Source: Scenedesmus sp. PABB004 (Eukaryota). From it: a stretch of 64,000 bases of DNA. The stretch lies in contig JABVCE010000039.1 of the NCBI GenBank assembly GCA_014905635.1, positions 62,001 to 126,000 on the forward strand, read 5' to 3'. Made by a program: the position numbers and the translations under genes. Below the pieces are notes generated by a model. That model was given only the letters and a program-made list of their open reading frames with translations, was not told where the DNA came from and ran no database searches. The stretch's first letter is position 1. Every line of letters starts with the position of its first letter. Below are positions 19,084-31,084 of the stretch, in pieces.

Positions 19084-21493
19084 TCAGGTGAGCTGGGAGG
19101 GCATGCCGGTCATGTAGCCGTACGGCACGGCCGTGTGCTCCGCGCTGCCTGGGCGGGGCTGGCGCGCGACGACCAGCATCTCGTGCAGCGCCAGCGACAC
19201 CGGCCCGGAGCGGCCCTCAAACTCGTGCGCGCCGGCGCCGATGGGCCGGCCGTCCAGGCTGGCCAGGCCCACGACGCCGAGCTCGCTGCTGATGGCAAAG
19301 CCCTCCGCCGCGCCCGCGAGCTCCTCCAGGCTGAACGTGCGCCGCTCCACGGCCGAGACCGTCAGGTCCTCGTCGGCGTGCTGCGCGCGGGTAGGGGGAG
19401 GGGGAGGGGGGGGGGTGTAGTGTGGTGGGCGGGGCGGCGACAGGTGCCGAGTGAGCGACGCATGGGCGGCGCGCGCAGCGCCACGCGGCGCGGCCAGCGC
19501 GGGGGAGGTCAGCGTTGGATTGGTCGTCTGTAATCACGGGTGATTCAGGTGAAAGATGGTGATTGAAACGTTTGCTCGTCACCCCTCCCCAGGGGCGCCA
19601 CGCAGGGCACGCCCACGCGCAGGCACGCGCGGTCAACGCACGCGGCAGGCGCACTCAGGCGTGGCGGTGATCAGCGTTGGATTGTGGAGTAATCACGGTT
19701 GAAGTCAGGTGAAAGATGGTGATTCAAGCGTTTGTGTTTCATCACTCCACCGCCACGCCCCGCGCGCGCACACGCGGCAGACGCAGCAGACGCGGCACAC
19801 GCAGCAGACGCAGCACACACGGCACGCGCAGCAGACGCAGCACGCGCGCGCAGCCGCCCGGCCCTGCACCCGCGCGCGCTCACCTGGGGCGCCAGCGCGG
19901 CCACGTTGCGCGCAGCCATGCCCGCCAGCCCGCTCTCGTCCGGCGGCACCACCAGCGTGCCGTCGCGCGTGAGCATCGCGATGGTGCAGTCGGGGCCGCG
20001 CAGCACCGTGCCGTCGGCGTCCACAAAGATGCCCTGCGCCACAGCGGCGGCGCGGCGGCTCGGGCGGCGGTCCGGCGGCGCTGCGAAGCGCGCAGCGCGC
20101 CCGCCGCCACGCCCCGCCGCGCCCGCCGCCCCGCGCGGCGCGCCGGCGGCGCACCAGGTCTGCGCCGCGGCTCATCGCCTCGAGCTGCGCGAGCGCGGCG
20201 GGCATGTCGCTGGTGCTGCGCATGGCTGTGAAGTAGGGCGACGGCGGGTCGACGGGGCTGGCCACCGCGGCCCAGCCCTCGTCGCGGTCGAGCTCCGCCT
20301 CGCCGACGTAGCACATCTCGGTGCTCAGCACCGCGTACAGGCCCGGCCGCTCCGCGTCGGCCAGCCCAAACGTGCCGCGCCCGCGCGAGACCCACACCCG
20401 GAGCATGCCTGCGCGCGGAGGGCGCGAAGGGCGGCGCGGGGCAGCGCGGGGCAGCGCGGGGCAGCGCGGGGCAGTGCTGGGCAGCAGGGCGGCGTCGGCG
20501 CGCGCGGCGAGCCGGCCGCCCCCCTGCCGCCCGCGGCGCGGCGCGGCGCGGCGCGCGGCGTGGGGCTGACCGTTGAGCTTCATGCTCGCCGCTGCGGTGT
20601 CCAGCAGCACGCGTCGCAGCCGCGCCGCGCTCATGGGCAGCGGCAGGCCCGCGAGCTCCGCGCTCGCGGCCAGGCGGGCGAGGTGGGCGTCGAGCTGATA
20701 GAGGTAGCCCCCCACCAGCAGCACGCCCTCCGACACCGCGTCGCCGCGGTGGACCATGTGGTCGTCGACGGGCAGCACCATGAACCCCGGCTGCGTCACG
20801 ATGCCGCCGAGCTCGCTCGAGTAGAACGCGGCGTGGTGCTTCAGCGCCGCCAGGCCCGCCGTCTCGGCGAGCCGCTGCATCACCTGCGCGCGCGCGGGCG
20901 CGGGCGCGCACAGCAGGGGCCCAGGGGCGGGGGGTGGGATGCAGGGGGGCCTCGCCGCCAGCGCTGCCGCGGCCAGCCGCCGCCCCCGCTGCCGCTGCTC
21001 GCTGTTGGGCGCGCCGCGGCGCCCCTGCCGGGCCAGCCGGCGCGGCGCCGGGCTATCCCGCTCAGGCGGGTCCGGTTGCGGCTGGGGGCGCAGCAGGGTA
21101 GCCTGGCGCGCGCTGGCGGGCGCGTGGGGCCGGCCGCCGGCATCGGATCGTGCGCGCGGCCCCCCCGGCTCGCCCTCGCCGTGCCGGATGCCCCGCAGCC
21201 GCCAGGGCGCGAAGGGCGGCGCGGGGCCGCTGACACCGCCCACCGCGCACCCGCTCCGGCGTCAGGCGCGGCGTGGCGGTCGTCCGCGCGCCCGGCACCA
21301 CGCCCTCGGCCTGGCCCATGCGGTCCAGGGGCAGCGGGTTGGTGGCGTGCATCTGCGGCATGCTGCTGGCGCAGATCGCGCGCCGCAGGGAGGCCGGCGG
21401 CGCCGCATGGCGGCCGCTCGTGGACGGGCCGCCGTCGGCGCTGCGTGCGGCGGCCCGCGCGGCGTGCCAGCTGGCGGCTGCTAGGCGCGCCAT
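19084..21493 (-). CDS. Class IV aminotransferase-like protein (plant D-amino-acid transaminase/ADC lyase homologue), catalytically degenerate; snoRNA host gene; 5 introns
   Basis: FYSSELGGIVTQPGFMVLPVDDHMVHRGD; YLYQLDAHLARL; LRVWVSRGRGTFGL; SLDGRPIG; HTAVPY. The catalytic segment reads YFTAMRSTSDMP instead of F.TVKSVNYLP. Confidence 0.85.
19507..19584 (-). ncRNA. Intronic box C/D snoRNA, copy 1 (double guide, LSU rRNA)
   Basis: Minus strand: GGGGAGG stem - C box GTGACGA - guide TCACCATCTTTC - D' CTGA - C' GTGATTA - guide CAATCCAACG - D CTGA - CCTCCCC stem. Confidence 0.88.
19669..19747 (-). ncRNA. Intronic box C/D snoRNA, copy 2 (double guide, LSU rRNA)
   Basis: Minus strand: C box GTGATGA - guide TCACCATCTTTC - D' CTGA - C' GTGATTA - guide ACAATCCAACG - D CTGA; flanked by a perfect 12-bp inverted repeat GGCGTGGCGGTG/CACCGCCACGCC (19658-19669 and 19748-19759). 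Confidence 0.92.
19770..19845. repeat. Degenerate 9-bp intronic tandem repeat
   Basis: gcagacgca / gcacacgca units repeated about 8 times. Confidence 0.7.
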
Positions 21494-22032: not shown

Positions 22033-25000
22033 ATGGCCCGCGCGGCGCCCTGGGGCGGCCTTGCCGTCGCCCTGAGCCTGCTGGCGGCGGCCGCGAGCGC
22101 GGCGGCGGCCACGGTGCACGAGGCGCCCGTGGGCGGCCGCCTGGCGGCCGGCGGCGCCGGCCCCGCCACGGGCGGCGCGGCGCCGGCCGCCGCGACCATC
22201 CGGGCGTACCTGGGCCGCGTTGAGCCCGACGTGGCGGGCGCGTCGCTGAAGGTCGTCCGCGTCACGCCGAGCCTGTCCGGCGTCACCCACGTCGTGCAGG
22301 AGCAGCTCGGCCCCGACGGCGCGCGCATCGTCGGCGCCTACGCCAAGGCCGCGCTGCGGGACAACGGCGACCTGCTGCGCGTCGCGCACACGCTCGCGCC
22401 GACGGCGGAGGTCGCGGCCGCCGCGGCCGCGGCGCCCGCGGCGGCCGCGGCCGGCGGCGCCGGCGGCGAGGCGTCCGCGGTCGCCGCGGCGCTCGCCTAC
22501 CTGGGCCTGGCCGCCGACACGCCCTGGTGGAAGCCGCCCGTCGCGGAGCGCGTGTGGCTGCGCGTCGGGGCCAACGGCGCCGCCAGCGACGAGGGCGAGC
22601 TCGCCCCCGGGTTTGAGGTGCGCACGTGGACGGCGGCGACCAACCAGCTGCACTACACCTACGTCGCGCACGGCGCCGTCGTGGGCGACCGCTGCGCCAC
22701 GAGCGGCGACTCATACCGCGTGTACCGGTACAGCCCCATCCGCGGCGGCGCGCGCGTGGTCAAGGGCCCCGCCAAGACCGGCAACGGCCCCTCGCCCGAC
22801 GGCTGGCTCTCGCCCGGCAAGATGACCACCCAGGACATCAGCGGTGCGCCGCACGCGGCCCGCCCCGCCGGCGGCGCAGGGGCCGCCGCGTGCGGCTGGG
22901 ACGGCCGGCGGGGCGCAGCCGTGTGGTCGCTGGCGGCGTGCGTTCGCGGCGCGCGCCTCCTGAGCACGCCCGCCCCCGCCCCGGGCCCGGCCGCGCCACG
23001 CAGGCAACAACGTGCACGCCTATCTTGACACCAACGACGACGACGAGCCTGACACCGACCCGGCGCTCAACGCGACGGCCGTGGCCAACGGCGTGTTCAA
23101 CGCCGTCGCCACGCCCTCGAGCGGCAACCCCAACACCACCAACAACCGCAACGCCGCGGTGCAAAACCTCTTCTACCAGTGAGCCGCGGCGCGGCCGGGC
23201 AGTTGTGGGGGCAGCGGAGGCAGGGACGGCACGGGTCGGCGCCGGCGCGCCCGCCGCTATGCCCCGCCGCCCCGCGCCTCACGTCGCGCCGCTGCCAGGG
23301 TCAACCTCGCGCACGATGCCGCGTACCGCGCTGGCTTTGTGGAGGCGGCCGGCAACTTCCAGGATGACAACTACGGCCGCTTCGGCGCCGCCGGTGCGCG
23401 CGCAGCGGTGGCGCCGGCGCGCGCCGCACGCGTCGCGCTTGCGCAACTCGCTGGCCGGGCCGTGCGCAGGCGACGCTGTGGACGCCCAGGCCCAGGACGG
23501 CGGCGGCGTCAACAACGCCAACATGGCCACGCCCGGTGCGGCGCGGCGCGGCGCCGCTCCCGCTGCACGTTCTCCGTGCGGCCCCCCGAGCGGCCAGCGT
23601 GCCGGCTGCGTGACCGACACCGCCCCCCCCCCCCTGCCCTGCTCGCCGCCGTGCCGCAGACCAGGACGGCGAGGCGCCGCGCATGCAGATGTATCTGTTT
23701 AACATGGATCAAGGCGCCTATGCCGAGGCCGAGAACAAGACGTACTCCGGCTTTGGCGCCATGTTTGGCCCGCCGCTCACGGTCGCGGGGGTCACCGCAC
23801 GCGCCCGCCCGATCGTGTCGCTGCCCGTCAAGGGCGTTGACGGCAGCCCGGGCGAGGGCTGCACCGCCGCGGCGCCGCGCAGCCTGGTGGGCGTCATCGC
23901 GGTCGTCGCCCGCGGCAACTGCACGTTTGTCACCAAGGTGCGCCTGCGACGCTGCGAGGCGGCCTGCGGGGCGGGCCGGGAGGCGGGCGGGGCCGGGACG
24001 CGGCGAGCGCACTTACGCGTTTGCCCCCGCTCGGGCCGCAGGTGCTCAACGCGCAGGCGGCCGGCGCGGTGGGCGTGCTGGTCGTCAACTACGCCACCGG
24101 GGTGCGCGGCCGCTGCCACCGCGCACGGCAGCTGCCACCGCGCACGCGCGCCCGAGCACGCGCCCGCCGCGCTCACGTGCAGCGCCCGCCGCCGCGCGCT
24201 CGCGGCGAGGTCAGCCGCCAAGCAACGGGATGGCCGGTGCCACCAACGAGACCATCTCCATCCCCTCCCTGATTGTGGAATTTGAGTCTGGGGAGGCGCT
24301 GCGCGCCGCCGCCGCGCGCGACGCGCCGGTCAAGCTCGCAGTCACGCGGCCGCAGACGGGCCAGATTGACGGCTCCTTTGACAGCGACATCGTGCTGCAC
24401 GAATACGTGAGCCCCCCCCCCTCCACGCGGGCGGCCGGGCGCCGCGTAGCCGCGCGCGGGTGCTGGCCCTGCCACCGCGTGGCGGCGCGCACGCCAACCA
24501 CACATCGCGCACGCGTGCAGGCGCACGGCATCACCGCCCGCATGGTCGGCTACACGATTCGCCCGCCCACGGCCGGCTCGTTCAACGAGGGCGCGTCGGG
24601 TGCGCACGCGCGCGCGCGCGCGACCCCGCGCCACGACACGCCGCCGCTGCCCATCTCGTCGTCCGCGCTGCCGCGCATCACCCGCGCCGCCCACACCCCA
24701 CCGCGCCACGCCCGGTCACCGCGCCGCGCCGCAGACGTGTTTGCCTTCCTGCTCAACGGCGACGACCGCATGGCGCGCTATGCCAATGCAGCGCTGATCA
24801 TCGGCAGCGCCGTCAACGACGGTGACACACCGCCGCGACGCGCGCCGCGCCCCGTGCTGCCGCGTGCTGCTGTGCCGCCCGCCGACCCTGCCCCTGCCGC
24901 CCGTGCGGCTCTGCGCCCGCCAGGCATTCGGCGCTACCGTTACCGCGGCTACCCGCTCACGTACCGCAACCTCACCGGCATCAACACTGAGTGAGCGCGC

Positions 25001-25713: not shown

Positions 25714-26636
25714 GCCGCACTGCCTGCGCCCGCGTGGCTGTGCCTACGCGATGCGGGGCGGCCTGATTGGTTCAGTCGTTGGTCTCTCCCCGCACTGCGC
25801 AGTGCGAGCGCGCGAGCTTTCGCTGCGCAAGCACCGGCTGGCTTTTGTCATGGGTTTGGCGGCCCGGCGTAGCGATGCGGCTGGCATCGGGGGTCATCAT
25901 CATCATAGTTTTTTCCTTGCTTAATTCCTTTTCGACATTGATTCGTGTGTCGCTCCGAGTGCGCACTTGGAGCGGCGACTCGAAAGACTCGCCCCGTGGT
26001 GACGCGCAGGCGAGCGAGCTTGCGAGGCTCTCTGAGCTGAGTCTCTTGGCTGAGTCGGTTCGGCTGCTAGGGGCTGCGTTGGCCCACCGGCTCGCAACGG
26101 ATCCGTTGCTCCGGAGCTCGGTGCGTGCGGCGGGACGGGCGCGTGGTCGGTCGCGGCCGCTGCCGCTGGGGCCGTGTGGGGGTGTGTGTCAACGTAATGT
26201 GCACCTGGGCACCTGGATGCGCGCTTGCTGGACCGGGCCCGGCGGGCCGGCACGTCCAGCGGGTCTGGCAGTGTGCGCGCAGCGCGGCCGCCGCGGGTGC
26301 TGCAGCGCGCGCGCCGGTGACGCCGCCGCCAAGCGGCGCAGGGCGGCCGGCGCCCGCTGGGCCGGCCGCAGTGTGCTCCTGCCGCACCGACACAGCGTGT
26401 GCGCCGCTGCGAGCCGCGCGAAACGGCAGGCGGGCGGCGAACGGAGCTCGTTCGTCTGCCCTTCCGCATCAGTCTCGGCTGCTCCCTGCTGCTCCCTGCA
26501 CCTTGAAACTTGCTCCGGTGGTTCGCCGGCCCGAAACACTCCTCTCGACTCGGCGCAGCCCTCAAAGACCACCGCCCGCATCCGCCGGTAGAGGAACGCG
26601 GGCGCCCCGCGCGCCGTGTGCCGAGCCGAGCCAGAC

Positions 26637-30297: not shown

Positions 30298-31084
30298 GCC
30301 CGCACCGCCGCCGCGCCCGCGTTGCTGCGCCCACGCTGCGCGGGGCGGCCTGATTGGTTCTGCCATTGGTCTCTCCCCGCACTGCGAGCGCGCCAGCTTT
30401 CGCTGCGCAAGCACCGGCTTCTGGGCGGCGCGCTGCTGGACCTCACACCACGCACTTGCTGTGCGACCTGATGGCGCATCGCCTTGCCGGTCAATCGATC
30501 TGCGCGATGACTGGCTCCACGCCCACCCAGCCCCAAGCGTGCACCGCTGGTTCTCCCTTCACTACGCGCGCTATTGCGATGCACCGTCTGGCTTTCGAAC
30601 CACCGGCTGGGGGCTCATCATAGTTTTTGCTACTGCGACATTGATTCATGTGTCGCTGGCACTAGAAGCGACGGCGGCTGCGGCGCGTGCGGCAGGACGG
30701 GCGAGTGGTGGTGGGCGCGCCGCCGCTGCCGCCGTCTCGACGGGCTTGTGTGGGTGGGTGTATCTCGATGAACCGTGCACCTCGGAGCGGCTGCCACGCC
30801 GTGCCCGGCGGCTGCGGCGGAGTCAGCGGTGAGACGATCGGCGCTTCGCAGCCCGGCCGCGAAAGCGCTCGCCGTGCCGCGATCGCGCGTGATCATCGCA
30901 CTGGGGACCCGGGGCCATCGCGCCCGCCGCCCGCCCGGCGCGGGCTGAGCGGGAGGGCTTGCAGGACGCAGAGCCCTCTCCGCAGGTGCGCCAGCGGCCC
31001 TGTGCGGGCGCCGCGCGCCGCCCCGCACTCTCCCCCCACTCCCCCGGCACTCCACCCGCCCTCCGCTCCCCGCCAGAGGTCAAG

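Follow-up and report, generated by a model that had tools for sequence, protein, structure and literature searches.

A probable pair of U51/CrCD09-family box C/D small nucleolar RNA genes in the last intron of an aminotransferase-like gene of Scenedesmus sp. PABB004

Our analysis of a stretch of 64,000 nucleotides (nt) from the green alga Scenedesmus sp. PABB004 (assembly GCA_014905635.1, contig JABVCE010000039.1, positions 62,001-126,000; hereafter the window, whose own coordinates are used throughout) supports a model in which the last intron of an aminotransferase-like gene carries two small nucleolar RNA (snoRNA) genes of the box C/D class. We confirm that this intron houses two tandem predicted double-guide units in the sense orientation of their host, at the place and with the boxes given in a preliminary description of the locus. 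The two units, copies A and B, are very probably paralogous members of the U51/CrCD09 snoRNA family. The pair is real, well formed and conserved, but its family and arrangement are already known and it is fairly ordinary: the novelty originally claimed for it is not supported in view of the CrCD09 snoRNAs of Chlamydomonas reinhardtii and of a metagenome contig, L001, in which the same family occupies the same intron of a homologous gene.

The alga is very GC-rich (78.4% GC over the window, with some stretches above 90%), and both strands have stop-free frames hundreds of codons long, which makes the length of an open reading frame uninformative about genes here. The host intron was read directly from its borders. 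On the minus strand, from 19900 to 19381, an exon ending in ...CCCCAG is followed by an intron that starts with GTGAGC (19883) and ends in ...GCGCAG (19381). The upstream exons match the class IV aminotransferase family PF01063 of Pfam at 44.2 bits (cut-off 28.5), and the one database relative is a PF01063 protein of Chlamydomonas eustigma of 413 amino acids (E = 2.2e-34), the only one of 8000 scored candidates to pass in a homologue search dominated by low-complexity words. Residues 269-317 of this protein align to the exon that precedes the intron and residues 326-412 to the exon that follows it, in which a stop codon comes next, which makes the intron the last of the coding region, as had been proposed. 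Within it lie two AT-richer islands of 44-50% GC, the snoRNA copies. The minus strand is also that of the snoRNAs, since the plus strand shows rRNA-sense words. In the same intron, upstream of copy A, imperfect short repeats of the GCUGCGUCU/GCUGCGUGU type lie at positions 19770-19850 of the minus strand, a tract that is length-polymorphic, as near-identical metagenome contigs have 3- or 6-letter insertions at 19794.

Both copies have box C, box D and a terminal stem, with a single deviation in box C of copy B, and both have internal D' and C' boxes, with antisense elements spanning 12 nt before D' and 10-11 nt before D (Table 1). Copy A reads, in order, helix, box C, 30 nt ending in UCACCAUCUUUCAC, box D', 8 nt, box C', 15 nt ending in ACAAUCCAACG, and box D. 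Across the two copies the spacings are 27-30 nt from C to D', 7-8 nt from D' to C' and 15-18 nt from C' to D. The D' guide together with box D' (20 nt), box C' (7 nt) with the C that follows it, and the D guide together with box D (14 nt) are identical in A and B, and box C agrees at six of seven positions. Substitutions and indels fall between box C and the guide that follows it, between boxes D' and C', and in the second spacer at its 5' part, and the terminal stems, of 14 and 7 bp, are unrelated in sequence. The preliminary description had already read selection into this pattern, and our comparison bears it out: boxes and guides are kept while spacers and stems diverge, which is the mark of selection that acts on the boxes, the guides and the pairing rather than on the sequence itself.

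Table 1. The host intron and the elements of the two predicted snoRNA units, in window coordinates.
Feature	Position	Strand	Notes
Last intron of host gene, 503 nt	19381..19883	-	read directly: GT 19883-19882, AG 19382-19381, pyrimidine tract before 3' splice site
snoRNA copy A (upstream in transcript), with terminal helix	19657..19760	-	boxes, stem; fold z-score against shuffles -3.3
Copy A terminal helix, 14 bp (12 Watson-Crick + 2 G.U)	19760-19747 with 19670-19657	-	
Copy A box C, GUGAUGA	19739..19745	-	UGA.GA invariant in six-copy alignment
Copy A D' guide, UCACCAUCUUUCAC	19709..19722	-	positions 3-14 from D' complementary to LSU GAAAGAUGGUGA; fifth position U19713
Copy A box D', CUGA	19705..19708	-	
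Copy A box C', GUGAUUA	19690..19696	-	invariant in all six aligned copies
Copy A D guide, ACAAUCCAACG	19675..19685	-	11 nt complementary to LSU CGUUGGAUUGU; fifth position C19679
Copy A box D, CUGA	19671..19674	-	
GC-rich spacer between the snoRNAs, 66 nt	19591..19656	-	fold z-score -0.5
snoRNA copy B, element order as in A	19502..19590	-	boxes, 7-bp stem; fold z-score against shuffles -2.6
Copy B stem, GGGGAGG/CCUCCCC, 7 bp	19590-19584 with 19508-19502	-	
Copy B box C, GUGACGA	19582-19576	-	
Copy B D' guide	19562-19549	-	
Copy B box D'	19548-19545	-	
Copy B box C', GUGAUUA	19537-19531	-	
Copy B D guide, CAAUCCAACG	19522-19513	-	
Copy B box D, CUGA	19512-19509	-	

Boxes of this kind are short and CUGA is common, points that would favour a chance coincidence of boxes and rRNA-complementary words in an AT-richer patch of intron. 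We consider this alternative refuted, with a negligible residual probability. The D' guide 12-mer TCACCATCTTTC occurs twice in the window against 0.01 expected, and none of 100 shuffles reached two; the 14-mer CAATCCAACGCTGA, which joins the D guide to box D, has two exact matches against 0.09 expected at up to two mismatches, with a further, unrelated two-mismatch match at 24784. A scan of both strands of the 64 kb for the pattern xUGA(U/C)GA ... CUGA, which also required low GC content and five or more base pairs of flanking stem, returned two matches, copies A and B. Stems of at least 14 bp and of at least 7 bp arose with frequencies of 0.0007 and 0.027 among 20,000 random placements in the window. 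A covariance model of six copies, two from the window and four from L001, revealed no extra copy in the 67,046 bases of these two sequences, the next best match scoring 14.7 bits (E = 0.67). The same arrangement also recurs in the homologous intron of another organism, as described below.

The rRNA targets were predicted by anchoring the registers on published guide assignments in other species. In Arabidopsis, snoR39BY ends in ...CACCAUCUUUCGGGA followed by CUGA and is assigned to G814 of 25S rRNA, whereas A816 is the position assigned to U51. The O. tauri RNA Ot-CDsno46 (...CACCAUCUUUCGGAU followed by CUGA) is listed for 25S G692, with yeast snR39b, and Ot-CDsno21 for A694, with yeast snR39. 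The CACCAUCUUUC core of the window D' guide lies 2 nt nearer to box D' than in snoR39BY, so that the fifth position meets the A two nt downstream of that G, which is the U51/snR39 site. These registers support the last A of GAA in GAA-AGAUGGUGA of large-subunit (LSU) rRNA (Arabidopsis A816, yeast A807) as the predicted target of the D' guide, in agreement with the site first proposed; by this register comparison, the A opposite the fifth nucleotide before D' is the one served by U51, snR39 and SNORD51. In Arabidopsis, A816 has a MethScore of 0.98, which drops to 0.43 in hid2, a mutant of the U51 cluster.

The D guide can be placed in the same way. Arabidopsis snoR34 ends in GAACAAUCCAACU followed by CUGA and is assigned to 25S G2918 (MethScore 0.98), five nt before the A-loop G2923. 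The window sequence CAAUCCAACG followed by CUGA lies in the same register, with one added pair at position 1, and its uninterrupted pairing with LSU CGUUGGAUUG(U) extends over 10 nt in copy B and 11 nt in copy A. The human counterpart, 28S G4464, has SNORD69 as its annotated guide (PMC6984369) and lies five nt before Gm4469 (Table 2 of PMC8053127). The register therefore supports, as the predicted target of the D guide, the first G of GGAUUGUUC, five nt before the A-loop G (Arabidopsis G2918, human G4464), and the SNORD69-type site of the preliminary description stands. Both proposed sites thus agree with published guides that RiboMeth-seq supports; yeast carries no methylation at the second of them. 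This agreement with SNORD69, SNORD19 and SnoR34 is one of target, given by the register and by the LSU context in four Rfam-annotated fragments; it is not one of descent, as the backbone is unlike and the element lies before D' in snoR34.

The four fragments came from a scan of genome contigs for the A-loop word, which yielded at least 97 loci, mostly chance 15-mers in bacteria. Twelve short loci of the 80 listed were checked with Rfam, and four of these 12 were eukaryotic LSU fragments, covering the 3' part of the LSU only, in which the target word reads AAGCGTTGGATTGTTCACCC. Only the context of these fragments is informative, because they were picked by the target word itself. All four (L011, L015, L076 and L078) are short contigs filed under bacterial assemblies that match eukaryotic LSU rRNA (RF02543) at 401-702 bits, and they are likely contamination; L015 also has a group I intron (116.5 bits). 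Two scans of viral contigs, in which the LSU 5' domain and 18S rRNA were sought (1 and 9 loci), gave no rRNA among the 10 loci by Rfam at gathering scores. One viral contig, L099, has at its end (380-499) some 90 nt of LSU-rRNA-like sequence (..GGACCCGAAAGATGGTGAACTATGCCTG) joined to unrelated AT-rich sequence and is probably a chimeric assembly; in E-value mode, the one Rfam match for this LSU-like piece was to a snoRNA on its other strand and is spurious. The target words were absent from the supplements of PMC8053127 and from the searched part of file 7 of PMC5122169.

Two comparisons suggested at the outset bear on the family to which the copies belong. A scan of the window against Rfam gave no match at gathering scores, and no rRNA either, so that by this measure neither copy belongs to SNORD51 or SNORD96. 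These two models appeared below threshold only, and both matches rest on the CACCAUCUUUC guide; the SNORD51 consensus of Rfam has UCACCAUCUUUC before D'. SNORD69 and SNORD19 gave no match in the copies at E-values up to 10. The Chlamydomonas catalogue, in turn, did contain a relative. The C. reinhardtii family CrCD09 is entered as 'U51 / CrCD09' in a compiled name table, which takes it to be the U51 named in the Chlamydomonas study (Chen et al. 2008), and its members CrCD09-1, -3 and -4 follow the pattern xUGACGA ... UUCACCAUCUUUCACCUGA ... (G/U)UGAUUA ... (C/G)UCCAACUCUGA (supplementary files, PMC5122169). CrCD09-1 and -3 read GUGACGA ... UUCACCAUCUUUCACCUGA ... GUGAUUA GAAACUCCAACU CUGA; CrCD09-4 is similar but has the D element GGAGUCCAACU, and CrCD09-2 has the box GUGAUGA and an unrelated D guide (PMC5122169). 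CrCD09-1 to -3 are clustered within about 800 bp (PMC5122169). A full-text literature search by name gave no match for CrCD09.

A comparison by eye with the CrCD09 sequences as printed shows that the window copies share the UGACGA form of box C (copy B), an identical D' guide, the CAC that links it to CUGA included, the GUGAUUA box C', a C-to-D length of about 70-75 nt and clustering within a few hundred bases. They also share the UCCAAC core of the D element, at positions 2-7 from box D and in the same register. Membership of the U51/CrCD09 family by descent thus rests on features outside the guide, namely the C-box variant, the CAC linker, the C' box and the length, and it extends to L001, which was compared by alignment. 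Unlike most CrCD09 copies, copy A has the canonical box C, GUGAUGA. The D guides also differ: that of the window, CAAUCCAACG, is complementary to the LSU word over 10-11 nt, whereas CrCD09-1 and -3 have GAAACUCCAACU and CrCD09-4 has GGAGUCCAACU, and by our count CrCD09-1 makes 6 contiguous LSU pairs. The predicted D guide of the window is thus a better fit to the A-loop-adjacent LSU site than those of its catalogued Chlamydomonas relatives.

A search with a pattern made from the conserved words led to a single metagenome contig, L001, which has four tandem units (705-794, 940-1030, 1260-1349 and 1470-1553) between an exon that ends in ...LELIPG followed by GT and an exon that starts with EIERSPDDV. 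These flanking exons match those of the window (E = 6e-7 upstream and 4e-13 downstream, at about 30% identity), and the downstream one also matches residues 319-388 of the C. eustigma protein, which places the intron at the same position of a homologous gene. Judged from these sequences, two distant green algae have kept a U51-type cluster in one and the same intron of a host gene that is not ribosomal. Across the six aligned copies, the box C core (UGA.GA), UCACCAUCUUUCAC, GUGAUUA and CUGA are invariant and box D' is (C/A)UGA. The D guide takes three forms: CAAUCCAACG in the two window copies, ACAACUCCAACU in one L001 copy and AUAAUCUAUCCC, which resembles CrCD09-2, in the other three. Positions 225-560, where the L001 intron starts, show a three- to fourfold tandem repetition of the last part of the upstream exon plus its 5' splice site (..GTCACGCTGGCGCGC.TGCTGGAGCT.ATCCCAGGGGTAAGGGCAGGGATGGGATGAGGTTGC); these repeats are possible decoy splice donors.

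The copies could instead be decaying or silent snoRNA pseudogenes that are no longer processed to stable RNA, a reading to which the non-consensus C box and shorter stem of copy B lend some colour. However, the UGACGA form of this box is present in all four L001 copies and is the norm for the family, copies A and B agree at all 42 positions of the guides and of the boxes other than C despite diverged spacers and stems, and each copy has rebuilt a stem of its own. Sequence variation points the same way. Among the runs listed, the only one with near-identical window sequence was a freshwater-metagenome DNA run (0.17 of words), and a near-identical contig of 250 nt over 19528-19769 shows seven differences, six of them in the 66-nt spacer (19598-19653) and one in the outer helix of copy A (19660), whereas the remainder of copy A and the 63 nt of copy B that the contig covers are unchanged. 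This pattern is a hint only, as it comes from one contig at a depth of 2.5. Taken together, we think it very unlikely that the copies are pseudogenes.

Several observations nonetheless weigh against functional U51-type double-guide snoRNAs. Copy B has a C at the fifth position of box C (GUGACGA), although the same letter is found in four of four L001 and three of four CrCD09 copies. The predicted D duplex is just 10 bp long in copy B and 11 bp in copy A. The best Rfam scores fall well short of their gathering thresholds, with SNORD96 (RF00055) at 22.0 bits in copy A and 16.4 bits in copy B against 43, and SNORD51 (RF00280) at 17.6 bits in copy A against 50. The variant at 19660 breaks a pair of the 14-bp helix of copy A and is uncompensated.

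The part of the model most exposed to an alternative is the D guide. The copies might be genuine U51-type snoRNAs whose D element acts instead, or also, on the 18S rRNA site that shares the word GUUGGAU (equivalent to human 18S G683), or is weak or orphan, so that the D' guide alone would be essential. An 18S role for Chlamydomonas-type elements, or a dual role here, is a legitimate rival because such dual targeting occurs in vertebrates: in SNORD19 and in some orthologues of SNORD69 a single antisense element serves 28S G4464 as well as 18S G683, and single-nucleotide changes switch the 28S/18S specificity in a yeast-system test (Deryusheva et al., PMC6984369). The D guide is also the variable part of the family, with three types among the six aligned copies, and the CrCD09 D elements share the UCCAAC core only and have U at position 1. 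If the green-algal 18S word is AGUUGGAUUU, as we assume, that U would pair with an A in it, and the same word would presumably give only 8 pairs with the window D guide. None of the nine viral-contig loci found with this assumed word was rRNA by Rfam. The two window copies, in contrast, have kept the same 10-nt CAAUCCAACG, whose position 1 is G, and their D guides make 10-11 contiguous pairs with LSU CGUUGGAUUG(U). An alternative or dual function of the window D guide is therefore unlikely in our view, if less so than decay of the copies.

If copies A and B are U51-type snoRNAs with two LSU targets, they would follow the standard box C/D snoRNA pathway. The intron would be spliced or cleaved, core proteins binding the C/D kink-turn would protect each unit, the terminal stem would join boxes C and D, and exonucleases would trim the flanks. 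Each RNA would then direct fibrillarin to two LSU rRNA sites, the A816 equivalent through the D' guide and the G2918 equivalent through the D guide, the methylated nucleotide being the one paired to the fifth position before D' and D, as in a standard box C/D small nucleolar ribonucleoprotein. We infer expression, processing and methylation for both units from their sequence. With two units in one intron, either the RNA would have to be cut between them or each unit would have to be protected on its own. A processing hairpin was sought in the spacer and the intron flanks, but these fold no better than shuffles (z-scores of -0.5, +1.8 and -0.8).

The preliminary description also proposed that a single RNA here joins two guides that are carried separately in other eukaryotes. 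The separation holds in Arabidopsis, where the two sites are listed under U51 and under SnoR34/SnoR6.3, and in human, where they fall to SNORD51-type and SNORD69/19 RNAs, respectively; the combination is probably not new, however, because CrCD09 has the same backbone, D' guide and D core. Through its D' guide the window unit shares its predicted nucleotide with Arabidopsis U51, yeast snR39 and snR59, human SNORD51 and Ot-CDsno21. Unlike the double-guide window units, Ot-CDsno21 is listed with one target only; in the O. tauri table of 131 RNAs, the A site has this single-target guide and no row names SNORD69, SNORD19 or snoR34. Arabidopsis U51 is listed for A816 only, a former G3283 prediction having been rejected for poor pairing, and it belongs to a polycistronic cluster with U31 and U33, unlike the aminotransferase intron of the window. 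Through its D guide the unit shares its predicted nucleotide with SnoR34/SnoR6.3 and SNORD69-SNORD19. The SnoR34 element lies in the same register (..AAUCCAAC, one nucleotide, CUGA) but differs in its unrelated backbone, its position before D' and its partner guide for 18S rRNA (U1273), and SNORD19/69 differ in lying in introns of GNL3 (PMC6984369). Since a D element of matching core and register is already present on the Chlamydomonas U51 backbone, the guide pairing is most simply seen as a feature of the algal family. The combination thus probably predates this alga and is a trait of the family rather than a peculiarity of the locus.

The genomic setting is likewise familiar. Intronic snoRNA clusters are extensive in C. 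reinhardtii, to judge from the title of Chen et al. 2008 (reference list of PMC5122169), and snoRNA genes are intronic and clustered in O. tauri too. Such green-algal clusters also have several snoRNAs per intron in host sense, and they differ from the present pair in host gene and organism only.

Elsewhere in the window, two plus-strand blocks 4.6 kb apart, at 25726-25960 and 30313-30670, show 88-95% similarity in stretches of 74 and 42 nt, and both are followed by a common AT-rich piece, CATCATAGTTTTT ... GACATTGATTC.TGTGTCGCT, a word found at these two places only. The blocks have no Rfam match and look like a duplicated upstream region of two tandem paralogous genes.

Our work adds two snoRNA genes to the annotation of this alga and predicts methylation at two rRNA positions whose Arabidopsis equivalents are modified constitutively. 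The overall interest of the locus is modest, and the part of most interest is a conserved host intron with a changing D guide. Retention of the cluster in two distant algae makes the intron a useful marker when snoRNAs are sought in algal genomes rich in GC, for which Rfam models fail, as they did here at gathering scores. A D guide that varies while its backbone stays constant offers a small and clean case of turnover of antisense elements, a phenomenon already described in vertebrates, in which such elements are shuffled between snoRNA families (Deryusheva et al., PMC6984369). A bolder proposal, possible but one we lean against, is that a single syntenic aminotransferase intron has held these genes across deeply diverged chlorophytes, with the U51 D' guide fixed and the D guide turning over, the window form being SNORD19/69-like and directed to the LSU and the Chlamydomonas-type UCCAAC perhaps tuned to 18S rRNA. 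If true, the locus would be a natural series of guide retargeting between 18S and 25S rRNA by one or two substitutions, outside vertebrates.

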